From positions 1 to 21,355 of the forward strand of contig PRDI01000012.1 in assembly GCA_003345595.1 (NCBI GenBank): DNA of 21,355 bases, read 5' to 3'. Below are positions 2,743-16,283 of this stretch, piece after piece. Source of the stretch: Candidatus Thorarchaeota archaeon. GTDB lineage: Archaea > Asgardarchaeota > Thorarchaeia > Thorarchaeales > Thorarchaeaceae. A model generated the notes under the pieces. It saw nothing but the letters and a program-made list of their open reading frames with translations, was not told where the DNA came from and did not search any database. The position numbers and the translations under genes are program-made. How positions within the stretch are numbered: the stretch's first letter is position 1; every line of letters begins with the position of its first letter.

Positions 2743-3750
2743 TCAGAGAACCTTGACCAGTGAATCGACTACGTTGTATGTACTCTCTGGTCTAGAATCA
2801 GAGAAAGCCCGTGTTCTGATTGTATTGGATGTGACAATCCTCCCCTTGCTTCTTTCCACCAGGTTCTCAAGCAGCTGTTCACCCTTCTCAAGAAGCGGCA
2901 TTACGTGAACGACCGCAAGACCAACATCTGATGCCCCTTGGGCATGGATCTTCTCGGCAGCCTTGAGCAGAGTATTTCCGCTCTTTGTCAAGTCATCAAG
3001 GACTATGACGTTCTTGCCCTTTACTCCAACTTCCCCCTCAAGCTCCACAGTGTAGGAGTCACGACGGTGTTTCCCGAATCCCTCGACAGCGAATCGCTCT
3101 TGGCCGCCCTCGTCAGGCGTTATGACAGTATAGTCATGAAAGCCGAACCTAGCTGCTGCGAACTTCACGAGGTCGTGTGTGATGTCTATCTCTTGATAGA
3201 GGCCTTTCCCTCCAAGGGTCTTGACCCACTCCAAGCTGTCTGGCGCATGAGGGTTTACCACCCAAACCTTGTTGCAGGCACCCGCTATCAGATTCGCGGC
3301 CCATCTGCAGGAAACTGCTTCCCCTGTCTTGAATGCCTTGTCCTGCAGAGCAAATGGCTGGAACGTCAGTACGACTTCCACATGTGATGGCGGAGGAATG
3401 GACTTCGTCCTGTATTCCTTATGGGCCATTTCCTCCACTTCCACAGGGTGAGTCAGACTGTCGAGCATCAGCAGGAGCTCAACTAGGCGGTCGGAGGTTG
3501 TGAACACCTCTTTCTCGACAGGACTTGAACCTGTGCAGCTCTGGATAACCACGACTCTCCGGTCCGAGATCTGGACCACATCCGGTATTCGCGCGTATAT
3601 GTCTGCATTTGGGAACATATGGCGTCCATCGTAGTTCATTCCACAGCCGAACACACGATATCCGAGCTTCTCGAATCTCGCTCTCAGATGGTCAGCACCG
3701 CTGGCAAGAACTACGTCATACTTCTTCATGCTGACTAACTCGCGCGACAT
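2743..3750 (-). CDS. prs: Divergent ribose-phosphate pyrophosphokinase (PRPP synthase)-like protein
   Basis: VVVIQS, DRLVELLLMLDSL, QDKAFKTGEAVS, TPDEGG, K-x-R (GKHR), and the PRT motif VIVLDDLTKSGNTL followed by AAEKIHAQGA..V...VVH and VTSNTI. These follow the two-PRT-domain PRS layout. Confidence 0.8.
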   Translation of the reverse strand: MSRELVSMKKYDVVLASGADHLRARFEKLGYRVFGCGMNYDGRHMFPNADIYARIPDVVQISDRRVVVIQSCTGSSPVEKEVFTTSDRLVELLLMLDSLTHPVEVEEMAHKEYRTKSIPPPSHVEVVLTFQPFALQDKAFKTGEAVSCRWAANLIAGACNKVWVVNPHAPDSLEWVKTLGGKGLYQEIDITHDLVKFAAARFGFHDYTVITPDEGGQERFAVEGFGKHRRDSYTVELEGEVGVKGKNVIVLDDLTKSGNTLLKAAEKIHAQGASDVGLAVVHVMPLLEKGEQLLENLVERSKGRIVTSNTIRTRAFSDSRPESTYNVVDSLVKVL

Positions 3751-5777: not shown

Positions 5778-6062
5778 TCAATGATGAGTAAGAGCTTCTT
5801 CTACAACGCTGAGTGAAACCTTAGGACTGGCTGACTCCATCTCTCTCAACTGCTTGCGAGCCTTGTCTGTGATCTCGAATCGCGGGCCACCAGCCAACGA
5901 CCACTCCCTAGACTCGACTCGTCGAGCGAGCCCTGCCTTCTCGAGAGCTTCGAGAATCGGCAGTGGCTCAGCAATGTTTGTGTGCAGCGAGATGAAGCCC
6001 AGCGGGCAGGAACCCTTGGCCATATCCAGCGCTTGAAGCACAACGATCATTTTCTTTTCCAT
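5778..6062 (-). CDS. Small winged-helix protein, probably co-transcribed with the upstream dehydrogenase
   Basis: ILEALEKAGLARR...RFEITDKARKQL wHTH wing pattern. GAGGTGA SD just before ATG 6062; 24 bp after the stop of 6087..7313. Confidence 0.72.
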   Translation of the reverse strand: MEKKMIVVLQALDMAKGSCPLGFISLHTNIAEPLPILEALEKAGLARRVESREWSLAGGPRFEITDKARKQLREMESASPKVSLSVVEEALTHH

Positions 6063-6086
6063 TCTTTCACCTCATTGGTTTCTTGT

Positions 6087-7313
6087 TCAAAGACTCCCCT
6101 TGTTCATGCGTCGCTCGGTTGCCTTCAGGACCCTCTCCTTGGCAATCATCATTGCGACAGCCCTCGGAAGCATCACAACATCACCACTGATCGAGCTGCT
6201 CAGGACTGTCTTCGTGTTCTCCCTGATTCTGGCATCGATCATTGCGAATGCTTCGTCTATACTCTTCCCCAGATACTCAGCATAGGAGCCTATGACGCCC
6301 CCAGAGTTGGCCAGCATGTCTGGCAGAATCAGGATACCCCTCTTGAAGAGTATCTCTTCGCCTGCTGGCGTGGTGGGATTGTTTGCACCTTCTACTATGA
6401 GACCTGCCTTGATCCTGGACGCGTTCCGTTCCGTGATGACATTTCCGACCGCTGCTGGAATCAACACATCACATTCGACTTCGAGAACGTCGTCTCTGCC
6501 AAGCTCCTTGGCTCCCTTGAGGTGCTTGCAGGAGTGCGCTTCATCAGTTGCATAGGCATGTTTCATTGCTTGATCAATGTCAATGCCCTTTGGGTTGTAG
6601 GCGCCTCCCCAATAGTCTCCGATGGCTACAATCTTCGCACCCTTGCGGGCAAGGTACTTGGCCACTTCTGACCCGACATTGCCGAATCCATGGACTGCCA
6701 CGGTTAGACCTTCAGGTGTGTCCTTGATAGGCACAAATTCGGACAGCATGCTGAGCGTTGTTTCTATGGTAACTCCGAGTCCGAATCCAGTCGTCCCCAG
6801 CTCGTGGGGTATTCCTCCTAATCTCTCCGGTTTTCCCGTGGCGGCTTTTCTGTCGCCAATGACTTCAACGAATGCTGCTATTTCTTCCTCCCCGACATTC
6901 ATGTCCGGCGCGGAAACCCATTCGTTTGGTACATGAGCCGAAACCGCTTTCGCGAATGCTCTGACGTATGATTGCTTGTCGATCGAATAGGGATCTGCAC
7001 TTATTCCTCCCTTCGCTCCCCCGAAAGGCAGATTGGCAAGTGCACACTTCCACGTCATGGTTCTGGCCAGGCCAAACACCTCAAGCGGGGTGAGGCCTGC
7101 TCTGATTCTGAATCCACCTTTACCGGGACCTAGAGCAGTGTTATCTATGATGAGGATTCCTTCCATGCCGAGTTGCGGATCATAGACACGAAGGACTTTC
7201 TCCGGGCCCCACTTGTCACTGAAAGCAGCAATGTTAACATCCTCAAGCAAGCGCTCGAGCATAGCCAGCTGCTGCGATTGGACTTGTGTCGATGCATCTT
7301 TCAATGTTGCCAT
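6087..7313 (-). CDS. gdh: Glu/Leu/Phe/Val dehydrogenase, short type with LeuDH-like N-terminus
   Basis: DNTALGPGKGG, MTWK, LPFGGAKGG (catalytic Lys), SAPDMN, TGKP, Rossmann GFGNVG, EGANNP and PDMLANSGGVIGSYAE. Confidence 0.92.
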   Translation of the reverse strand: MATLKDASTQVQSQQLAMLERLLEDVNIAAFSDKWGPEKVLRVYDPQLGMEGILIIDNTALGPGKGGFRIRAGLTPLEVFGLARTMTWKCALANLPFGGAKGGISADPYSIDKQSYVRAFAKAVSAHVPNEWVSAPDMNVGEEEIAAFVEVIGDRKAATGKPERLGGIPHELGTTGFGLGVTIETTLSMLSEFVPIKDTPEGLTVAVHGFGNVGSEVAKYLARKGAKIVAIGDYWGGAYNPKGIDIDQAMKHAYATDEAHSCKHLKGAKELGRDDVLEVECDVLIPAAVGNVITERNASRIKAGLIVEGANNPTTPAGEEILFKRGILILPDMLANSGGVIGSYAEYLGKSIDEAFAMIDARIRENTKTVLSSSISGDVVMLPRAVAMMIAKERVLKATERRMNKGSL

Positions 7314-7568
7314 GTTTTCTAGCTCCTATGGGCAGTCTGCAAGAGCTTGTGATTTTTCGGGCAAATGGAATACACTTAAGCCCGGCGGACCCACAGGTGA
7401 TGCGTGGTGTCAGGAAGTGTACAATTGGCCCATAGAGAGTGCACTTGCGTACCATTCTTCTAGGTTCTATGTGTAAATAATATCACCCTGCAGTGTTGCT
7501 GGTCTTCTGACATTTCTGGCATTGCATCTACGAGAAAGTATTAATTATGTCACTGAGGGATCCGTCGC

Positions 7569-8651
7569 GTGCCAGATCTTCTAGCTGACAAGAACAACCT
7601 AGTAATACTAGAGGAGTTGCTATCCGGGGATGCCGTAAGTGTAAACCTTAGCGAACTCTCTCGCGAACTGGGACATCACAGGCACACGATTATGGGCAGA
7701 GTCAAGGCCATAATTGACAATCGGATTCTAGATACTCCGTACGTTCCATTCGTCGGATTGGGCAAAGTCTATCCGCTGTTCGTGATTCTCTATCTCGAGG
7801 CTCCAGATGACGTCCGGTTCGAGAAGTGGATAAGAGAAGACCCATACATATTTGCAGCCTTCCGAACCAGACAGTCAGATTTCAACACCCTGCTCTTCGT
7901 ATACCATGAGAGCCTGACAAGCTATCTCCGCTGGAGGGAATCACTTCCGTCAGTCATGAAGACAGAGTACAATATCCCTGAGGAACTTACATCATTTCTT
8001 TCGAGTTCATTCTACCACTCAAACGAGCTGACAATCAAGCACGAACCGTCATCTGGATTAGCTCTAATGGTTGAAAAGGCTCGAATGAATGATACTAACA
8101 ATAACGGCGGGTTCATGCTCAATGATTTAGACTTCAAGATACTGAATAGCCTGTGTTCGGGAGTTGGTCTCAAGATCAATGAGGCTCATCTATGCAAGAA
8201 AACCGGCCTGCATCGAAAGACGGTTGAAAAGAGGATTGCCTCGCTGATGGACGAAGGGTACATCGCTCGCCCAGTTTGCAGTTTCCCGAGTTACTTCGTT
8301 CCTCCTGATTGCATGCTGACCCTCTCATTGGTCGAAGTGAAGAAACAATCGGAGAAGATCATACGCGATATTATGGCCGACCCGCATGTTCCTGTTGCTT
8401 TCAGGACAGTGCAGGGCCGGTATAATCTCCTTCTACTTGGCAATCACTACAGTATTGGCGACTATCTGAGTTGGGACGATGGCTACAGAGAAAGATTCCC
8501 TGGCGCCCTCGGAGGTGCCAACGTTACATATCTCACACCTCGCATGACTATCCTCTTCAGTCACAAGATAGTCGCTTTGATGTTCATTCGCAAGAGAATG
8601 GAGATATATAAGGGTAGGAAGCTTAGGGAGCTGCTAAAACCGGCTCGCTAG
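7569..8651 (+). CDS. Tandem (two-unit) Lrp/AsnC-family transcriptional regulator
   Basis: Two HTH+RAM-like units: ILEELLSG...LSRELGHHRHTIMGRV / ILNSLCSG...LCKKTGLHRKTVEKRI, and DPYIFAAFRTRQSDFNTLL / DPHVPVAFRTVQGRYNLLL. TATTAATTA at 7539-7547, about 25 bp before the GTG, suggests a leaderless transcript. Confidence 0.8.
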   Translation: MPDLLADKNNLVILEELLSGDAVSVNLSELSRELGHHRHTIMGRVKAIIDNRILDTPYVPFVGLGKVYPLFVILYLEAPDDVRFEKWIREDPYIFAAFRTRQSDFNTLLFVYHESLTSYLRWRESLPSVMKTEYNIPEELTSFLSSSFYHSNELTIKHEPSSGLALMVEKARMNDTNNNGGFMLNDLDFKILNSLCSGVGLKINEAHLCKKTGLHRKTVEKRIASLMDEGYIARPVCSFPSYFVPPDCMLTLSLVEVKKQSEKIIRDIMADPHVPVAFRTVQGRYNLLLLGNHYSIGDYLSWDDGYRERFPGALGGANVTYLTPRMTILFSHKIVALMFIRKRMEIYKGRKLRELLKPAR

Positions 8652-8661
8652 ATATACAGCA

Positions 8662-8687
8662 AGCCCGCTGTCTGTGAGGGGCGGGTT
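8662..8687 (+). terminator. Possible 3' hairpin after the regulator
   Basis: AGCCCGC (8662-8668) pairs with GCGGGTT (8681-8687), about 10 nt after the stop codon. Confidence 0.3.
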
Positions 8688-8855
8688 CCGGTTCTACCTG
8701 TTGGCAAGGCAGTAAGGGGAGCTGAGTTGAGTGATGTTGCAATGAAACCAAAATGAGCCACAGACTGTTCTGAATTCGTTGTGTTCCCGTTCCGTATTAC
8801 TGTGGCAATTCAGTACACAAGGTCTTGTCAGAGGCGACACATTGCGACCCTTGTC

Positions 8856-8870
8856 TGTCATATTATGGCA
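8856..8870. promoter_or_regulatory. Putative Lrp-type operator (15-bp semi-palindrome)
   Basis: TGTCA-TATTA-TGGCA with an AT-rich core, about 60 bp upstream of the TTTAATA box (8927-8933) of the + strand GDH. Confidence 0.35.
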
Positions 8871-8992
8871 TAACTTCACAAAAAGGGTGGCTCATTCTAT
8901 CCACAGTTGTCAGATGACCGTCAGTGTTTAATAGGCGGAGCATCAACGCGCGCATGCCTTTCCAGAGCATGTTCCAATGGAGGAACGCGAAG

Positions 8993-10261
8993 TTGGAAGA
9001 GGAAACACATCGTAGTACAACGAACAACCCATTCGAAATCGCTCAGCATCAGATAGACATCGTCGCGAAGCGTATGAAAATCGACCCTGGTATCATCGAG
9101 ATCATCAAACAGCCCAAGCGTGTCCTAGAGGTGTCAGTTCCAATAAGAATGGACAATGGTCAGCTCCGCGTGTTTCGCGGTTATAGAGTCCAGCACAACG
9201 ACGCGCGTGGCCCCTTCAAGGGAGGTATTCGCTATGGCCCTCAGGTGAATCTTGATGAGGTCAAGGCACTTGCCACTTGGATGTCTATGAAGACGGCAGT
9301 CGTGGACATACCATATGGTGGCGCTAAGGGTGGGATTATCTGTAATCCCAAAGAGATGAGCAGTGCCGAGCTCGAAAGGCTGACCCGTAGATTCACGTCA
9401 GAGATCAGCTCCATTATTGGCCCATTGAGGGACATTCCCGCACCTGACGTCAACACCAACCCTCAGACAATGGCGTGGATAATGGATACATATGGCGCAG
9501 TAGCAGGGATTGCCGAGCCCGGCGTTGTTACAGGCAAACCGATTGCACTTGGCGGGTCCTTGGGTCGGAACGAGGCAACATCGAGGGGTGTGGTCATATG
9601 TGCCAGAGAGGCGGCCAAGGTCACAAGTACAAAACTGGAGGGCTCCAGTGTTGCAGTGACAGGGTACGGAAATGTCGGCTACAACTCAGCCTGGCTGGCA
9701 GCAGATCTTCGCATGAGGCTCGTTGCTTGTAGTGACTCTCAAGGTGCGATCTACAATCCCGATGGACTCGATGCTCGAAAGGTTGGTGACTTCAAGGCAA
9801 GAACCGGGACTGTGAAAGGTTACCCCGGAGCCAGACAGATACCAATCGACAAGGTGGTTGAGCTCGATGTTGACTTCTTGTTTCCATGCGCTCTGGAGAA
9901 CGAGATAACCGCAGCCAACGCCGCTTCAGTCAGCGCGAAGATAATCGTGGAAGGGGCCAACGGTCCGACCACGCCTGAAGCCGACGACATTCTCTTCGAA
10001 TCTGGGACTTTTGTTGTTCCTGACATCCTTGCCAATGCTGGCGGTGTGACAGTCTCCTACTTCGAGTGGCTCCAGAACTTGAGGCGAGAGTACTGGACTG
10101 AGCAGGAAGTGAATGCCAAACTTGAGGCGCGTATTGTGAAAGCATTCCGCGAAGTCTATGAACTCTCCAAGAAGGAAACAGTCCATATGAGGACTGGGGC
10201 GTTCATGCTAGCTGTAGGCAGGATAGCGTCAGTCATGCAGCAGCGTGGTTTGTTTCCATAG
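8993..10261 (+). CDS. gdhA: Glutamate dehydrogenase, canonical hexameric type
   Basis: GYRVQHNDARGPFKGGIRY, MSMK, PYGGAKGG, DIPAPDVNT, TGKP..LGGSLGR.EAT, GYGNVG, SDSQG and NAGGVTVSYFEW. Start reassigned to in-frame TTG 8993 after GGAGG (8979-8983); the ORF track start 8924 overlaps the TATA box. Confidence 0.95.
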   Translation: MEEETHRSTTNNPFEIAQHQIDIVAKRMKIDPGIIEIIKQPKRVLEVSVPIRMDNGQLRVFRGYRVQHNDARGPFKGGIRYGPQVNLDEVKALATWMSMKTAVVDIPYGGAKGGIICNPKEMSSAELERLTRRFTSEISSIIGPLRDIPAPDVNTNPQTMAWIMDTYGAVAGIAEPGVVTGKPIALGGSLGRNEATSRGVVICAREAAKVTSTKLEGSSVAVTGYGNVGYNSAWLAADLRMRLVACSDSQGAIYNPDGLDARKVGDFKARTGTVKGYPGARQIPIDKVVELDVDFLFPCALENEITAANAASVSAKIIVEGANGPTTPEADDILFESGTFVVPDILANAGGVTVSYFEWLQNLRREYWTEQEVNAKLEARIVKAFREVYELSKKETVHMRTGAFMLAVGRIASVMQQRGLFP

Positions 10262-10270
10262 ACTCTCTTG

Positions 10271-10292
10271 GGACCATCCATCCGGATGGTCC
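10271..10292 (+). terminator. 9-bp hairpin just after the GDH stop, followed by a pyrimidine-rich tract
   Basis: GGACCATCC-ATCC-GGATGGTCC, then ACCACTCTTTCTT. Confidence 0.55.
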
Positions 10293-10493
10293 ACCACTCT
10301 TTCTTACGCTCTGGTTCTAGCTGGTTTGGGCCACTCATCTTGCTCGCAGGGAGCATGAAACAGCCTAGGTCACCGAGTCATTGGGTGGTGTCGCTGGGCG
10401 TCCAGATGTTGTTCACGCTGGTTTCTTGTGCAAAGCTAGCTAGAATCCTCTCATGGAGATTCTGTCACGGTCGAGCCACTGACACGTGATGGA

Positions 10494-11756
10494 CTACGGG
10501 AATATACCCCTCAATTCTATGGCCTTGGCTACTCGTCCTACTGCCAATGCGAGGGCCGCAATTCGGAGGTTTCTGATATTGAACTCCGTTGCTTTGTTGT
10601 TTACCTCGTTGAACGCTTTGACTAGGATATCGCGAAGTGCCTGATTGACCTGTTGATCACTCCAGAAGAAGTGCTGTAGTCCTTGAACCCACTCAAAGTA
10701 GGAGACTGTCACACCGCCAGCATTGGCAAGGATGTCTGGGACTACTGTCGTCCCCTTTTCTGACAGAATCGCGTCAGCTTCCGGAGTGGTCGGACCGTTC
10801 GCTCCTTCCACTATCAGTGGGGCCTTCACAGAATCAGCATTGCCCTTGTTGATGGCATCGCCCATGGCACAGGGGGCGATAACATCCACATCGAGTCCAA
10901 AGATCTCCTCGTTGGTCATAGTGTCTGCATCGGGAAAGCCTTCAACTGACCTCTTAGGATGTTTCGAGGAATACTCGATGAGCTTCGGGATGTCAAGCCC
11001 GTTCGGGCTGAAGACTCCGCCAAATGCGTCGGTGACAGCAACTACCTTGAAGCCCGCTTGGTGGGCGAACCGGCAGAAGTAGCTGCCTACATTGCCAAAA
11101 CCCTGTACCGCCACCCGAATACCTTTCGTACTTCGGCCTCTCTGTCTCAGAGCCTCCTCCATTACATAGAACAGCCCTCGCCCTGTCGCTTCGGTTCTGC
11201 CAATACTACCACCGATTTCCACTGGTTTTCCCGTCACAACGCCAAGCTCAGTGTGGCCGGTTATCATGGAGTATGTATCGAGTATCCACGACATAACCTC
11301 GGGGTTTGTGTTCACGTCAGGTGCGGGTATGTCGGACTCGGGGCCAATCATGTTGATCAAGCTGTAAGTGAATCTCCGTGTCATTCGCTTTAGCTCACCA
11401 GCACTCAGCTTCCATGGATCGCAAACAACTCCTCCTTTCGCGCCGCCAAAAGGAATGTTTACGACAGCGGTCTTCCATGTCATCAGAGCAGCCAGAGCTT
11501 TGACTTCATCAAGGCTTAGGTCCGGCGCGTATCGAATTCCGCCCTTGCATGGTCCTCGATGATGCGAGTGTTGCACTCTGTAACCTTCGAAGATCTCAAG
11601 ATGTCCATCGTCCATGATCACCGGGAAATATGTTATTAGCACCTTATCGGGCTTCTCGAGTATCTTGAGTATGTTTCCATCCAGCTTTATGGCCTCAGCA
11701 GCAGTGCGCAGCTGGGTCAGAACAGCCTCCCATGGATTGAACCCAGAGCTTGACAC
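10494..11756 (-). CDS. gdhA: Glutamate dehydrogenase, canonical type, second paralog
   Basis: GYRVQHSHHRGPCKGGIRY, MTWK, PFGGAKGG, DIPAPDVNT, GGSIGRTEAT, QGFGNVG, TDAFGG and NAGGVTVSYFEW. Start reassigned to in-frame GTG 11756 after GGAGG (11771-11767); TTAATAT box at 11807-11801. Confidence 0.95.
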   Translation of the reverse strand: MSSSGFNPWEAVLTQLRTAAEAIKLDGNILKILEKPDKVLITYFPVIMDDGHLEIFEGYRVQHSHHRGPCKGGIRYAPDLSLDEVKALAALMTWKTAVVNIPFGGAKGGVVCDPWKLSAGELKRMTRRFTYSLINMIGPESDIPAPDVNTNPEVMSWILDTYSMITGHTELGVVTGKPVEIGGSIGRTEATGRGLFYVMEEALRQRGRSTKGIRVAVQGFGNVGSYFCRFAHQAGFKVVAVTDAFGGVFSPNGLDIPKLIEYSSKHPKRSVEGFPDADTMTNEEIFGLDVDVIAPCAMGDAINKGNADSVKAPLIVEGANGPTTPEADAILSEKGTTVVPDILANAGGVTVSYFEWVQGLQHFFWSDQQVNQALRDILVKAFNEVNNKATEFNIRNLRIAALALAVGRVAKAIELRGIFP

Positions 11757-11942
11757 GGTTTCTCTTCCTCCGTTCTCTGGCAGGTCAGCCGCAGAAGAAG
11801 ATATTAACGGTTTGGTTAGTGACGCGCCCAGCTCTGTCCATTGAAGATGCGGACTTCCACGCAAGGACACAACAGCGAATCATGAGTTGGTCATCAGAAT
11901 CCCGATTCAGCCGATTCTATCGCCCGTCTGTGAGCTCCATCT

Positions 11943-12554
11943 CTACTTGCGAATTATCTCTAGGAGCTCCCCCAAACGATTCTTGATGTCAGTTTCAAGT
12001 GTTCTGAGCTCTGCTAGCTGCCGGATTTGGGCCACTCGAGCGCCACGATACTCCGCGTCCGATATCTTGTCTGCTCTACGACGGAGCTCAATCTTATCCA
12101 TCTCCGTCGTTATGTTCTTCCTTCTCTCCATAACAAGATCGAAGCCTTGCTTCAGTGCCATCCACTCGACCAAGGCATTACTCTTCTCTTGCTCAATGTG
12201 TTCCCTCTTGAGTTTCTCCTCCTCCATTTCCTTGAGCTTCTTGTTGGCAGCTCTTATCTCTCGCTGGATGTCGTAGAGTCTCGACTCGACTTCTCTTTTC
12301 ACTTCGATCATTTGTGTGGATGTGGTCCATCTCTCCCTGTACTGCTGTAGATGTTCCTGTTCTGTTATCTCGCCCTTCTTGAGCTTCTGGTCCAGCGCCG
12401 TCAGTTCAGTCTGCACCTGTAGGAGTCTTGCCTTAACCTCTTCATATGACTGACGGAGGGCCACCCACTCCACACTGTACTGAGCCAGCACCTCTTTTGG
12501 ATCGAGATAGAGGTAGTCTTCCCCACCTTGTCTAAACCCTGAACCGTGGCTCAT
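11943..12554 (-). CDS. Coiled-coil protein made of two helical-hairpin repeats (CdvA-like / steadiness-box-like turn)
   Basis: Ungapped internal repeat with a 101-aa period: VEWVALRQSY / VEWMALKQGF and KGEITEQEH / ADKISDAEY. Charged heptad-rich sequence. Confidence 0.75.
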   Translation of the reverse strand: MSHGSGFRQGGEDYLYLDPKEVLAQYSVEWVALRQSYEEVKARLLQVQTELTALDQKLKKGEITEQEHLQQYRERWTTSTQMIEVKREVESRLYDIQREIRAANKKLKEMEEEKLKREHIEQEKSNALVEWMALKQGFDLVMERRKNITTEMDKIELRRRADKISDAEYRGARVAQIRQLAELRTLETDIKNRLGELLEIIRK

Positions 12555-12739
12555 GGATAGCGTCCTTCTGTGATGTCTGCCGGCAAAGCTATGCCACCGT
12601 GATGTTCGTCAGACAGACTTAACGTTTTCTGACCGGCGGCCCAAATGTGCAGTGGCTCCCTGCGTTCCTGTTGTTGGCTCAACTCAACCAAAAGCCTAAA
12701 GGTCAGGTGCCCTCAGCCCGTCAAGCGTCGTGCGGGTAC

Positions 12740-13804
12740 ATGAAACTGAAAGTGGACTTAATACCCCTCAGGCAGAGGAAGCAGAAGCCGACCGACCCGC
12801 TCAAGCTGGAGTTTGGCACAACCTTCACCGACCACATGTTCACAATGAGTTATCGAGAAGGTATGTGGAATGACCCGAGAATAGGTCCCTTTCAGCCCTT
12901 GTCGCTGAATCCCGCCGCAATGTGCCTTCATTATGGACAGGGAGTGTTCGAGGGTATGAAGGCCTACCGAAGGAAGGGGAAGGTGTATCTCTTCAGACCT
13001 CGTGACAACATTCTAAGGCTCAACTCCTCTGCAAAGAGAATAGTCATGCCAGAGGTTGACATTGACTTCACTCTAGACTGCTTAAAGGATCTCATACGTA
13101 TTGAGCGCGACTGGATACCCGAAGTCTCCGGGACCTCACTCTATATCAGACCAACAATGATAGCGACTGAGCCAAAGCTCGGAGTCCGGGCTTCACTTGA
13201 GTATCTGTTCTATATCATTCTCAGTCCAGTAGGTCCCTATTTTAGAGAAGGGTTCAACCCCGTGAAACTGTTGGTATCAGAGAAGTACGTGAGGGCCGTA
13301 CGCGGCGGCATTGGTTTCTCTAAGACGGTAGGTAACTATGCCGCGAGTCTGTTGGCTGGAAAGGAGGCAGCGGACCAGGGCTATTCGCAAGTCCTATGGT
13401 TGGATGCACTTGATCGGCAATACATCGAAGAAACGAGCACAATGAATGTGTTCGTGAAGTTCAGAGATGAACTTGCTACGTCTCCACTAGATGGGACAAT
13501 ACTGCCCGGTATTACTAGGGACTCCGTTCTACGAATATCTCGTGACTGGGGGTTGAAGGTCAGCGAGCGACGTGTATCCATCCATGAGCTATTGAAAGGA
13601 ATTGAGGCCGGAACGGTGCAAGAGGTTTTCGGCGCAGGTACGGCGGCAATAATAGCACCTATCGGTGAGCTTTCATATCAGGGGACGGCGTACGTGATAA
13701 ATGGCGGGAAGACAGGCGACCTAACTCGAAGGCTGTACGATGAGATCCTTGGGATACAATGCGGAGAAAGGCAGGACAGTCACGGTTGGGTCTTGAGCGT
13801 CTGA
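12740..13804 (+). CDS. ilvE: Branched-chain amino acid aminotransferase (PLP fold IV, long subfamily IIIa type)
   Basis: FGTTFTDHM, LHYGQGVFEGMKAY, LFRP, LYIRP, PLP Lys in SKTVGNYA, ILPGITRDS and FGAGTAA. Start reassigned to ATG 12740 (MKLKVD). Confidence 0.95.
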   Translation: MKLKVDLIPLRQRKQKPTDPLKLEFGTTFTDHMFTMSYREGMWNDPRIGPFQPLSLNPAAMCLHYGQGVFEGMKAYRRKGKVYLFRPRDNILRLNSSAKRIVMPEVDIDFTLDCLKDLIRIERDWIPEVSGTSLYIRPTMIATEPKLGVRASLEYLFYIILSPVGPYFREGFNPVKLLVSEKYVRAVRGGIGFSKTVGNYAASLLAGKEAADQGYSQVLWLDALDRQYIEETSTMNVFVKFRDELATSPLDGTILPGITRDSVLRISRDWGLKVSERRVSIHELLKGIEAGTVQEVFGAGTAAIIAPIGELSYQGTAYVINGGKTGDLTRRLYDEILGIQCGERQDSHGWVLSV

Positions 13805-13882
13805 CGGACACGCACAGAGCAGGAAGCTTTTAGCGTGATTCTGTGTACGGGCACGCTAGATGAGGTGGATACTCTGCCTTCA

Positions 13883-14380
13883 ATGCTGATCGTTGACCAA
13901 ACGAAATGCACCGGTTGTAGAATATGTGAGCTCGCATGTTCTGCAAAGAAAGAAGGTGTCTTTCGGCCCAGTCTTGCCCGGCTCAAGGTAGTCCGATATG
14001 ACGACTTAGGTGTGGACATTCCCAATGTGTGCGGGCCTTGTGAGGAAGCACCATGTGTTGAAGTCTGTCCTGTCTATGCGATGCGGCGGGACCCCATTTC
14101 GAGGATGACCTTTCTTGATGAAGACAAATGCATCCTGTGCAAGTCCTGTGCAGGAGCTTGCGTCAACGGCGTCATCCGGCTTGACACCTCTCGTATGCGA
14201 ATCCTGAAGTGCGATCATTGTGGTGGCGACCCCGAGTGCGCAAAAGCATGCCCGACGGGTGCCATTCAGTATGCGACAGCCGCCCAAGCATCAGTTCTCA
14301 GTAGGCACGACAAGATCACAGGATACCTGAGAGAGATCAGACGAACTGCGCAGACGCAGGAGTCAGGCGGAGAGAGTTGA
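13883..14380 (+). CDS. 4x[4Fe-4S] electron-transfer subunit (DmsB/HycB-like) of the aldehyde oxidoreductase
   Basis: CTGCRICELAC, CGPCEEAPCVEVCP, CILCKSCAGAC and CDHC..DPECAKACP. Its stop is 1 bp before the AOR start. GAGGTG SD at 13862-13867; the start is ATG 13883 or possibly CTG 13874. Confidence 0.9.
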   Translation: MLIVDQTKCTGCRICELACSAKKEGVFRPSLARLKVVRYDDLGVDIPNVCGPCEEAPCVEVCPVYAMRRDPISRMTFLDEDKCILCKSCAGACVNGVIRLDTSRMRILKCDHCGGDPECAKACPTGAIQYATAAQASVLSRHDKITGYLREIRRTAQTQESGGES

Positions 14381-14381
14381 A

Positions 14382-16283
14382 TTGAAGCCAGGAGGATATG
14401 CAGGCAGAATACTGAGAGCCGACCTCAACAGACGCGACTTTCGAGTTGAGCCAGTGCCGTCTGAGTGGGTCGCCGAGTACATTGGAGGGGATGGGTTTGC
14501 CGCGAGGATTCTATATGACGAAGTGCCAGCAAAGGCTGACCCGCTGGGCGAGAAGAATAGGCTGATATTAGCGACTGGACCCGTGACCGGGACACTATGG
14601 CCAATGAGTGGCAGAACGGTGTTCATCTCCAAGTCACCTCTAACGGGCATATGGGGTGAGTCTCATGTCGGAGGCTTCATTGGACCAGAGCTGAAGTATG
14701 CCGGGTATGATGTTTTAGTGATTGAGGGTCGGGCCGAAAAGCCCGTCTATGTCAGTATTTGTGATCAGGATCTTGAGATAATCAATGCATCTGATCTTTG
14801 GGGGTTGAAGACAGATGAGGTGTCAGCTGCAATCAGGAGCCGGCACAATGATCCCGATGTCCAAGTCGCGGCAATAGGTCCTGCGGGAGAACGATGTGTC
14901 CGTTTTGCATCGGTAATAGTGAACAACGCTCGTGCGGCGGGCAGAACAGGTATGGGTGCAGTCCTCGGGTCGAAGAACGTGAAAGCAATCGCAGTTCGAG
15001 GTCACCAAGGGATTGCGGTCAACGACCATGAGCGGTTCGTGGAATTGGCGAACGACGCCCACAGGAGAGTCAGGCAGAATCCTCAGGCTCAGCAAATGCA
15101 CAAGTATGGCACATGGGTTCTCACTGCTGTCAAGCAGACAATAGGCGAGCTGCCAACCTACAATCACCGCACGGGTGTTTTCTCAGGTTGGGAGAAGCTC
15201 AGCGGCGATTACATCAGACCCAGATACACTATCGGCGACAGGGCATGTTTCGGCTGCAGCCTTGGGTGCAAGAAAGTCAACTACATTCGCGAAGGTCCGT
15301 ATGCTGGCACTCTCGAAGAAGGACCTGAGTATGAAGGTCTAATGGCATTCGGTAGCCTTCTGGGAATCTCAGATTTCCCAACTGCTCTCAGAGCCAATCA
15401 GATCTGCAACAGACTTGGAGTAGATATGATCTCAGCCGGGTCCTGCATCGCCTTTGCCACCGAAGCGTTTCAGAATGGCTTGATTGACAGCAAGATGACC
15501 GGCGGCATCGACCTTGAGTGGGGCAACAGCGAACAGGCCTTACGGCTGCTTGATATGATTGGCAACAGAACAGGCTTCGGGGACTTACTGGCGGAAGGGA
15601 GTCGGGAGGCTTCTCGAAGAATAGGACGCGGTTCTGAGCAGTTCGCAATCCATGTCAAGGGGCTTGAGGTCTCTGGCCAGGATGGTAGAACTCACAGGAG
15701 TATCGGACTGTCTCATGCCACGGGTGCCCGAGGAGCTGACCACCTCCGGAGTCTTGTTACCGTGGATCAGCTGGGCTATCAGGAAGTTGCCGCCAAGAGG
15801 TGGGGTTGCGACAAGCTCCCAGAGATTGTGGACCCGTATACTGAGAAGTACAAAGCCGCAGCTGTCGTCGAGACTGAGAACACGTACTGTATTCGTGATG
15901 CTCTGATTGTGTGCTGGTACTCTGTGTCATGGCCGCCAATCTTCTGGATGGAGGACTTCGCACAGATGCTACCTGTCCTGACCGGAGTGAGTAGGTTTGG
16001 AGAGAGAAAGAACTTGATCGAGATTGCAGAGCGGCAGGTGACTCTGAAGCGGCTTTTCAATGCACGAGAGGGAATCAGTCGGAAGGACGACACTCTTCCG
16101 AAACGTTTCACTGTTGATCCGATGCCAGAGGGACCTGGAAAAGGTCAGAAGGTCAACCTAGAACCGATGCTCAATGATTACTACAGATTACGAGGCTGGG
16201 ATGAAATAACGGGATTGCCTACCGAGGAAACAGTCCGAAGGCTAACGCTAGAGTGGACACATAGTCATTCGGCAAGCTCGTAG
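14382..16283 (+). CDS. aor: Tungsten-containing aldehyde:ferredoxin oxidoreductase family catalytic subunit
   Basis: GYAGRILRADL, YIGGDG, KSPLTG, IGPAGE, AAGRTGMGAVLGSKNVKAI, CFGCSLGC, GPEYE, DMISAG, HVKGLE, RGADH, DALIVC, FNAREG...DDTLPKRF and YYRLRGWD. Confidence 0.95.
   Translation: MKPGGYAGRILRADLNRRDFRVEPVPSEWVAEYIGGDGFAARILYDEVPAKADPLGEKNRLILATGPVTGTLWPMSGRTVFISKSPLTGIWGESHVGGFIGPELKYAGYDVLVIEGRAEKPVYVSICDQDLEIINASDLWGLKTDEVSAAIRSRHNDPDVQVAAIGPAGERCVRFASVIVNNARAAGRTGMGAVLGSKNVKAIAVRGHQGIAVNDHERFVELANDAHRRVRQNPQAQQMHKYGTWVLTAVKQTIGELPTYNHRTGVFSGWEKLSGDYIRPRYTIGDRACFGCSLGCKKVNYIREGPYAGTLEEGPEYEGLMAFGSLLGISDFPTALRANQICNRLGVDMISAGSCIAFATEAFQNGLIDSKMTGGIDLEWGNSEQALRLLDMIGNRTGFGDLLAEGSREASRRIGRGSEQFAIHVKGLEVSGQDGRTHRSIGLSHATGARGADHLRSLVTVDQLGYQEVAAKRWGCDKLPEIVDPYTEKYKAAAVVETENTYCIRDALIVCWYSVSWPPIFWMEDFAQMLPVLTGVSRFGERKNLIEIAERQVTLKRLFNAREGISRKDDTLPKRFTVDPMPEGPGKGQKVNLEPMLNDYYRLRGWDEITGLPTEETVRRLTLEWTHSHSASS

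Follow-up and report, generated by a model that had tools for sequence, protein, structure and literature searches.

The subject of this study is a 21,355-base stretch of DNA from a Candidatus Thorarchaeota archaeon (contig PRDI01000012.1 of assembly GCA_003345595.1, analyzed as a whole contig, C12, and hereafter called the window), belonging to a metagenome-assembled genome (MAG) of 2.73 Mb in 129 contigs that is 83% complete. It carries three genes for glutamate dehydrogenases (GDHs), here named GDH1, GDH2 and GDH3, together with the gene for a presumed regulator, REG, and genes for a branched-chain aminotransferase (ilvE) and a putative two-subunit tungsten-dependent aldehyde:ferredoxin oxidoreductase (AOR). 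We consider it probable that this conserved locus brings together the glutamate node of peptide fermentation and nitrogen metabolism, using independently transcribed isoenzymes having divided roles. Fermentation of amino acids is considered the main livelihood of Asgard archaea, with glutamate dehydrogenase as its hub, and the set found here, with its three isoenzymes, one dedicated regulator and one transaminase–AOR operon, is compact and conserved enough for asking how the breakdown and the synthesis of glutamate are kept apart. It also brings to light a divergent clade of GDHs and the double-Lrp partner inherited along with it, both common to Asgard archaea and Bathyarchaeia. The locus is a conserved amino-acid-breakdown locus made from known parts and not a new kind of system, and no part of it is a new kind of protein.

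An initial annotation of the window, made from the DNA letters and their open reading frames (ORFs), had described three dissimilar members of the ELFV (Glu/Leu/Phe/Val) dehydrogenase family within 5.8 kb. Profile searches agreed with this, as all three proteins scored above the gathering cut-offs of both Pfam domains of GDH (PF00208 and PF02812), GDH1 most weakly, and no other ELFV genes were found in the 83%-complete MAG. For two more ELFV genes to land by chance no more than 5.8 kb from the first, we estimate a probability on the order of 1e-5. GDH2 and GDH3 were 50% identical to each other, with GDH1 being 32–34% identical to either. Using alignments and a motif scan we found GPxKGG, the second Lys (in TWKCA, SMKTA and TWKTA, respectively), GGAKGG, APD and GGVxxS to be kept in all three, GDH1 retaining K65, K89, K101, D137 and S343. 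From structural work on GDHs, these positions include the catalytic Lys and Asp, the carboxylate-binding Lys and the Lys/Ser pair responsible for preferring glutamate to Leu, Phe or Val. The three active-site lysines, the APD aspartate and the specificity serine that had been read from each paralog were thereby confirmed, and the alignments likewise reproduced the reported strand-end motifs GDYWG, SDSQG and TDAFG.

None of the three reached the NCBIfam equivalog cut-offs for GdhA_Arch (NF040817, 750 bits) or GdhB_Halo (NF041398, 620 bits), with scores of 563/511 for GDH2, 513/466 for GDH3 and 215/226 for GDH1; judged by profile, they are members of the family and not equivalogs of those two enzymes. 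The best solved-structure matches of GDH2 were the Thermococcus GDHs (1bvu/1euz, 476 bits) and those of GDH3 the Thermotoga maritima GDH (1b3b/1b26, 488 bits), with the best PDB match of GDH1 reaching only 206 bits. A phylogeny, which the initial annotation had proposed as a check, was made from 78 GDHs of the window, 40 related genomes and fetched loci, using a quick IQ-TREE search with SH-aLRT support only, and it placed the paralogs in three lineages. GDH1 fell in a long-stemmed clade with sequences from Bathyarchaeia, other Asgard archaea, Caldarchaeales and Nitrososphaerales, and the classical class contained GDH2 and GDH3 in different subclades, both well supported and both including further thorarchaeal or Asgard members. 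According to this tree, the paralogs are three old and separate lineages and not the outcome of a recent duplication. A fourth GDH type (600 bits to 5gud), close to the Corynebacterium glutamicum and Escherichia coli enzymes, was present in 17 of the 24 same-family genomes searched and absent from the genus of the window.

The suspicion that the cluster could be a mis-assembly, or unique to one assembly, was refuted by synteny. The full order AOR–FeS–ilvE–203aa–GDH3–GDH2–REG–GDH1–94aa was kept by three further members of the genus (genomes G001, G002 and G003, with loci L004, L005 and L019, respectively; L005 being from Candidatus Thorarchaeota archaeon OWC5), and a reduced form, AOR–FeS–203aa–GDH2–REG–GDH1–94aa without GDH3 and ilvE, was found in a sister thorarchaeal lineage (L006 and L008); because of this recurrence the cluster is not an artefact of assembly. 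The GDH1 of L004 was 95% identical to that of the window.

TATA-like boxes conserved among the orthologous loci preceded GDH1, REG, GDH2 and GDH3, which bore out the proposal that each dehydrogenase has its own candidate promoter. The box of GDH1, TTAAGTGTAT, lies at 7370–7379 on the minus strand and the element of REG, AAAGTATTAATTATGTCAC, at 7535–7553 on the plus strand, with the REG mRNA probably being leaderless. For GDH2 the TATA-like sequence is GTTTAATAGG at 8926–8935, kept along with the start codon in orthologous loci, and for GDH3 it is GTTAATAT at 11801–11808, with GGAGGA preceding the start. A scan for bacterial-type promoters and terminators gave counts at shuffle level, and as the models are bacterial and the host archaeal it was uninformative. 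Single GDH types also occurred in related genomes, with only the GDH3 type in G016, only the GDH2 type in G005 and G020, and the GDH1 type without the other two in many lineages. Having separate conserved promoters, differing orientations and each type alone in some relative, the three GDHs are therefore best understood as separate isoenzymes and not as one complex.

The regulator had been called a tandem Lrp, and this holds as a statement about its fold. An AlphaFold2 (AF2) model of REG, built with 17 homologs (pLDDT 88.9, pTM 0.83), showed two successive units, each consisting of a winged helix–turn–helix (HTH) followed by an alpha/beta domain, so that both halves have the Lrp/AsnC layout of an N-terminal winged HTH and a RAM-type alpha/beta domain. 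Foldseek gave the siroheme decarboxylase NirDL (4ch7) as the best full-length match (E 5e-10), with further matches to Lrp/AsnC regulators including FL11, E. coli Lrp and AsnC, and mycobacterial AldR (4pcq). Sequence profiles did not identify REG as an Lrp/AsnC protein, with only HTH_24 being matched (24 bits, in repeat 2), no match to AsnC_trans_reg in Pfam even at E <= 1 and no sequence match in the PDB. An HR.T motif was invariant in both HTHs in the alignment of homologs and located, by our reading, where Lrp recognition helices begin, which agrees with a DNA target that is conserved. Clusters of ~350-residue double Lrp/AsnC proteins from Archaea and Actinomycetota are present in the ESM Atlas, some of them named Lrp/AsnC regulators, and the architecture of REG is therefore not new.

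It was clear from the gene neighbourhoods that REG is a co-inherited partner of GDH1 specifically. Of the 21 loci with the closest relatives of GDH1, 20 had the REG gene beside GDH1 and divergent from it, and the REG–GDH1 loci spanned Thorarchaeia, Atabeyarchaeia (L009), Hermodarchaeota (L010, L021) and Bathyarchaeia (L012–L018, L024), as well as bins labelled Thermoplasmatales and Thaumarchaeota; the GDH1-like genes of Nitrososphaeraceae and Caldarchaeales, which are more distant, had no REG next to them. Full-length REG was found in nine of the 40 related genomes, next to GDH1 in seven of these nine. The trees of REG and of GDH1 contained the same three groups, and this agreement indicates that the pair is inherited as a unit and was apparently transferred between phyla. 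In 13 of the 20 loci with REG, GDH1 was followed by a small gene, which in the window encodes a protein of 94 residues; the AF2 model of this protein (pLDDT 83.4) gave Foldseek matches to MarR-family and Sso10a winged-helix proteins, and its homolog in L013 had a borderline match to TrmB in Pfam. Outside Thorarchaeia, REG and the small winged-helix gene were the only widely recurring genes of these neighbourhoods, with a set of Hdr/Mvh, FrhB, GXGXG, Glu_synthase and CCG genes recurring in L020, L021 and L024 only. In the literature searched we found no description of a fused double Lrp being inherited together with a separate GDH clade in Asgard archaea and Bathyarchaeia, and none of three GDH lineages gathered around such a double-Lrp/GDH1 pair in one thorarchaeal genus; a literature search on PDB entry 8kao gave nothing relevant. 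From its modelled fold and its position we presume REG to be the transcription factor of GDH1, which would bind DNA and respond to an effector.

As for the DNA site that REG may recognize, a candidate half-site, GTGACATAA at 7545–7553, recurs at the REG promoter throughout the four genomes of the genus; the REG–GDH1 spacer of Atabeyarchaeia (L009:9732-9976) holds a perfect palindrome, TATGTCAC-TTA-GTGACATA. The palindrome and the half-site are candidates for the REG operator, with support that is not above chance. In a k-mer enrichment analysis of 14 non-redundant REG–GDH1 spacers the best 8-mer, TGACATAA, was found in seven of the 14, no better than the shuffle maximum, and scanning the window for GTGACATAATTAATAC and GTGACATAA gave matches at chance level, none of which lay in the other promoters of the cluster. 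A search for inverted repeats in four promoter regions gave one weak pair. No operator shared with the promoters of GDH2, GDH3 or ilvE was found, k-mer, pattern and inverted-repeat searches giving no motif that these had in common with the spacer, and joint regulation of the locus is therefore unsupported. The regulator of the whole cluster that the initial annotation had envisaged thus gives way to one tied to GDH1 only.

The ilvE product passed the equivalog cut-offs for type II branched-chain aminotransferases (NF009897, 455 bits with a cut-off of 307; TIGR01123, 381 bits with a cut-off of 250). The Fe–S protein contained four Cys4 motifs and matched AorA (8c0z_C, 117 bits), WorS (9mqx_E, 112 bits) and the small subunit of Pyrococcus furiosus WOR5 (92 bits), and the AOR protein matched WorL (9mqx_D, 420 bits), P. 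furiosus AOR (1aor, 415 bits) and AorB (8c0z_A, 362 bits). The two together have the make-up of WorSL/AorAB-type enzymes, with an AFOR_N plus AFOR_C subunit adjacent to one carrying four [4Fe-4S] motifs, and these profile and PDB matches and Cys4 motifs upheld the earlier identification of ilvE, FeS subunit and aor genes following the dehydrogenases. By homology to 1aor, 9mqx and 8c0z the enzyme would carry a tungsten cofactor and use an aldehyde substrate. All three genes run in the same direction with gaps of ~78 nt (30 nt if the full ORF is taken) and 1 nt, and they are likely to form one transcription unit. WorS/AorA subunits bear four clusters and can connect catalytic subunits to further modules (PMC12318220). 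Beside the pair at this locus we found no gene for AorC (the FAD/NAD subunit) or for bifurcating WorABC, so that, judging by the locus, the enzyme consists of these two subunits alone. AOR clade 87 is stated to contain no heterodimeric WorSL enzymes (PMC12318220), and the pair in the window may be that missing heterodimeric type. The WorS-like subunit has a tail of ~40 residues beyond its last Cys motif, which could be a helix used for filament formation.

An AOR–WorS pair also adjoins GDH genes in the sister thorarchaeal lineage, and in Atabeyarchaeia (L009) an AOR gene, whose product is 39% identical to the AOR of the window, adjoins REG–GDH1, which speaks for AOR and GDH being functionally linked. 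The genome as a whole has 11 full-length AOR-family genes in 2.7 Mb, on contigs C7, C16, C23, C40, C58, C108, C121, C122 and others, the one on C58 being inside an open frame of 1217 codons, and it also encodes three to five alpha subunits of 2-oxoacid:ferredoxin oxidoreductases and ADP-forming acyl-CoA synthetase domains. Together with the operon layout and the recurrence of AOR, these genes agree well with the aminotransferase/GDH/AOR scheme of peptide fermentation to which the cluster had been assigned, and the same scheme has already been proposed for Asgard archaea (PMC8163825). The four genomes of the genus (G000–G003, the MAG of the window being 83% and the others 85–93% complete) yielded no Glu_synthase domain (PF01645) above threshold. 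Glutamine synthetase was present in the three other genomes and not found in the MAG of the window, and as the sister genomes have it we attribute this absence to a gap in the MAG.

We propose that the locus works as three units. The first would be an old and mobile, co-inherited trio of REG, the divergent GDH1 and the small winged-helix gene, in which REG, most likely sitting as a pseudo-dimer on the shared 255-bp spacer, would adjust transcription of GDH1 and of its own gene to an amino-acid or 2-oxoacid effector. The second would comprise GDH2 and GDH3, of the classical hexameric type and each with its own promoter. In the third, the ilvE–WorS–WorL operon, the branched-chain aminotransferase would hand amino groups to 2-oxoglutarate, which the GDHs would regenerate from glutamate with release of ammonium and NAD(P)H, while the resulting 2-oxoacids would pass to ferredoxin-dependent oxidoreductases, whose genes lie in other parts of the genome, and the derived aldehydes would be oxidized by the two-subunit tungsten AOR. 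As no glutamate synthase was found in the genus, one of the GDHs probably also makes glutamate. GDH1 is a candidate for that role because its clade includes GDH-like genes of ammonia oxidizers and because it adjoins glutamate-synthase-like genes in L020, L021 and L024; under REG control it would be biosynthetic or nitrogen-sensing, with GDH2 and GDH3 being catabolic.

Several observations weigh against this reading. The assignment of anabolic and catabolic roles derives from homology and from the absence of genes in MAGs that are 83–93% complete, no operator is shared across the locus, and REG paralogs in G020 and G025 adjoin no GDH, showing that linkage to GDH is not universal in the REG family. 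REG might also act as an enzyme or by binding proteins, given NirDL as the best full-length match of its model. Furthermore, with 11 AOR genes in the genome we estimate the chance of one lying near the GDH genes at ~4%; a single adjacency is thus not very improbable, and the argument for a link rests on the recurrence in two other lineages. The cluster might even have grown by accretion without any joint function, a mobile REG–GDH1–winged-helix unit having landed beside unrelated GDH and AOR genes and persisted by descent in one family, uncoupled from them. The many different contexts of REG–GDH1 in other phyla would agree with such a history, as would the sister-lineage locus without GDH3 and ilvE, the missing shared operator and the AOR paralogs. 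We nonetheless hold it to be unlikely, albeit a serious possibility, as all three ELFV genes of the genome lie together, AOR independently adjoins REG–GDH1 in Atabeyarchaeia, and the branched-chain aminotransferase gene is close to WorS–WorL in the same direction, with functions that suit one known pathway.

The GDHs themselves could be regarded in other ways than as isoenzymes with divided roles. Two or three of the paralogs might assemble into mixed hexamers with one regulatory subunit, for which their adjacency, the homology of all three to hexamer-class GDHs and the 50% identity of GDH2 and GDH3 would be suitable, and hetero-hexameric GDHs are known in Thermus and plants (PMC12364357). This suggestion of the initial annotation was weakened by the occurrence of each type alone in relatives, by the divergent or convergent orientation of genes that have separate conserved promoters and form no operon, and by catalytic residues kept in all three. 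Moreover, 3aoe_A, which we take to be Thermus GdhB, outscored 3aoe_E, presumably the regulatory GdhA, for all three (453 vs 317, 401 vs 340 and 180 vs 128 bits). The paralogs are thus neither arranged for co-transcription nor always together, and none of them is GdhA-like, as would be typical of the Thermus enzyme, and we find mixed hexamers quite improbable. We think equally little of a transhydrogenase cycle, in which GDHs of opposite NAD/NADP preference would run simultaneously in opposite directions and thereby exchange reducing equivalents between the NAD and NADP pools. Different residues do follow the conserved Asp (Y-W, S-Q and A-F), and the nearest characterized relatives differ in their cofactors, with the T. 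profundus GDH being NADPH-dependent and the T. maritima GDH dual (PMC12364357), but the Asp at P7 and an aromatic residue at P2 are common to all three, and P7/P2 fingerprints do not predict cofactor specificity in GDHs (PMC12364357). The supposed cofactor-discriminating differences accordingly fell away, as the discriminating Asp is identical in all three, like in the NADP-specific E. coli enzyme, and non-predictive in the family; cofactor use is not readable from these sequences.

Very unlikely, to our minds, is that GDH1 is no working glutamate dehydrogenase at all and instead an enzyme for another substrate, or a sensory or regulatory pseudo-enzyme acting with REG. Its great divergence (215–226 bits at NCBIfam equivalog cut-offs of 620–750 for GDH) and the loss of key lysines in some REG-linked homologs (L021, L024 and L022) would be compatible with this, but the GDH1 of the window and its close orthologs keep the three lysines, the Asp and the Lys/Ser pair binding the glutamate side chain. 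A more encompassing picture can also be drawn, in which REG, GDH1 and the winged-helix protein would form a hitherto undescribed module by which anaerobic archaea of sediments sense glutamate and exert control, and which spreads from phylum to phylum, with the double Lrp and the GDH-fold protein cooperating, a partner that has lost its catalytic lysines serving as a pure sensor beside glutamate-synthase-like and Hdr-like genes in some lineages, and the module topping a three-isoenzyme switch, including mixed oligomers or NAD/NADP exchange, in the thorarchaeal genus. Taken as a whole we judge this picture to be distinctly unlikely, and we retain separately transcribed isoenzymes with divided roles as the preferred reading.

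Comparing the locus with known systems, we found counterparts for each of its components, as multiple archaeal GDHs, control of a neighbouring dehydrogenase by the Lrp family and WorSL/AorAB enzymes are all already known. The enzyme set of the genome is that of peptide fermentation in Thermococcales, where these genes are dispersed and there is usually one GDH, whereas here the branched-chain aminotransferase, GDH and AOR genes are physically linked, with three GDH lineages side by side and an AOR that has a WorS-type subunit. Thermus thermophilus GdhA/GdhB (3aoe), a leucine-activated hetero-hexamer, is similar in having adjacent GDH paralogs of the same 50-kDa class, but the window has no GDH operon, none of its paralogs is closest to the presumed GdhA, and the types occur singly in relatives. 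Several distinct GDH paralogs in one archaeon are also seen in Halobacterium salinarum, which reportedly has four GDH genes; to our knowledge these do not form a regulator-centred cluster. As a working model for REG–GDH1 one may use mycobacterial AldR, an Lrp/AsnC protein that is said to control the adjacent alanine dehydrogenase gene ald, the two genes being divergently arranged, as this too is an Lrp-fold protein encoded beside an amino-acid dehydrogenase gene; REG differs in being a fused double Lrp of 360 residues lacking a Pfam AsnC_trans_reg match and in having a GDH as its presumed target. NirDL (4ch7) shares with REG the two Lrp units in one chain, but at an identity of 12–13% and with no heme d1 or alternative heme gene context at REG. 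The ~350-residue double Lrp/AsnC proteins of Archaea and Actinomycetota resemble REG in length and fold, the sequence family of REG itself carrying no name. Finally, the WorSL/AorAB enzymes (P. furiosus WOR5, Aromatoleum AorABC, 8c0z, and Acetomicrobium mobile WorABCSL, 9mqx; PMC12318220) have adjacent genes for a catalytic L and a four-cluster S subunit, as in the window, but the window has no AorC or WorABC beside its pair and its L subunit is closest to the AOR type and not to WOR5.

Table 1. Features of the GDH–AOR locus in the window (positions refer to the whole contig; more extended ORF starts are given in parentheses)
Feature	Position	Strand	Evidence
Winged-helix (MarR/Sso10a-like) gene, 94 aa	5778..6062	-	AF2 and Foldseek; immediately downstream of GDH1
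GDH1, divergent glutamate dehydrogenase, 408 aa	6087..7313	-	PF00208 165 bits, PF02812 81 bits
Divergent promoter region of GDH1/REG, 255 bp	7314..7568	.	Blocks invariant across 7 thorarchaeal loci
REG, single-chain tandem Lrp/AsnC fold, 360 aa	7569..8651	+	AF2, Foldseek
GDH2, Thermococcus-type glutamate dehydrogenase	8954..10261 (ORF from 8924)	+	PF00208 272 bits
GDH3, Thermotoga-type glutamate dehydrogenase	10494..11756 (ORF from 11870)	-	PF00208 263 bits
Coiled-coil protein with internal duplication, 203 aa	11943..12554	-	Conserved neighbour in thorarchaeal loci
ilvE, branched-chain aminotransferase, class IV type II	12740..13804 (ORF from 12647)	+	NF009897, TIGR01123
WorS/AorA-like electron-transfer subunit, four [4Fe-4S] motifs	13883..14380 (ORF from 13835)	+	Cys4 motifs, PDB matches
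WorL, putative tungsten aldehyde:ferredoxin oxidoreductase catalytic subunit	14382..16283	+	AFOR_N 263 bits, AFOR_C 409 bits

With regards to the gene list, the initial annotation had included REG, ilvE, the Fe–S gene and aor correctly and had omitted the 203-residue gene at 11943–12554, and its ORF-derived N-termini of GDH2, GDH3, ilvE and the Fe–S gene were too long. Alignment with orthologous loci placed the likely starts further inside, at ATG 8954 for GDH2, GTG 11756 for GDH3 (where L005 and L019 have ATG), ATG 12740 for ilvE and probably ATG 13883 for the Fe–S gene. The 203-residue coiled-coil protein matched no family in Pfam, and its gene was found in L004, L005, L006, L008 and L019. 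Scans of the window with Rfam models and for tRNAs gave no match.

Some further variants of the dehydrogenase genes were seen among the relatives. In G003 (L019:10001-10735; G003:C3:738823-739534) one frameshift splits GDH1, representing either a pseudogene or a sequencing error of the assembly. Among REG-linked GDH1 homologs, lysines were lost in L021:10001-11140 (GGAQAG, K->Q), L024:9767-11158 (GPGNGG and GGARSG, K->N and K->R) and L022:9953-11212 (GPGEGG, K->E). In L020, L021 and L024 the GDH1 homolog is followed by genes for an HdrA/MvhD fusion and for FrhB-like, GXGXG, Glu_synthase and CCG-domain proteins, and the homologs with lost lysines may be non-catalytic GDH-fold proteins in a glutamate-synthase-like cluster. 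The closed Atabeyarchaeia genome G036 (CP147779.1, the source of L009) also has three GDHs (loci C1:1339037-1341440 and C1:1283402-1285938), of which a tandem pair of the classical type are the closest relatives of each other in the tree, with REG–GDH1 lying ~53 kb away and AOR adjoining REG. Of the REG paralogs, that of G025 (L086, on G025:C23) lies near ETF alpha/beta genes and a C13 peptidase gene, and those of G020 (L084 on G020:C7 and L085 on G020:C37) lie near genes for a family X DNA polymerase and hydrolases, one copy having a stop codon.

In all thorarchaeal loci (L004–L008 and L019) the GDH1 unit has a conserved companion gene, which in the window lies at 2743–3750; its PRPP-synthase-like product contains two phosphoribosyltransferase-type domains. 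Thermus GDH is reportedly regulated via an inactive homolog of adenine phosphoribosyltransferase, and by analogy this phosphoribosyltransferase-fold protein might be a partner of GDH. Between the PRPP-synthase-like and PNP genes, the related loci L004 (14567-16667) and L005 (13619-15310) hold a gene for a 563-residue protein with a C-terminal zinc ribbon, at the place of which the window has only 555 bases (2189–2742); this gene seems to have been deleted in the genome of the window.

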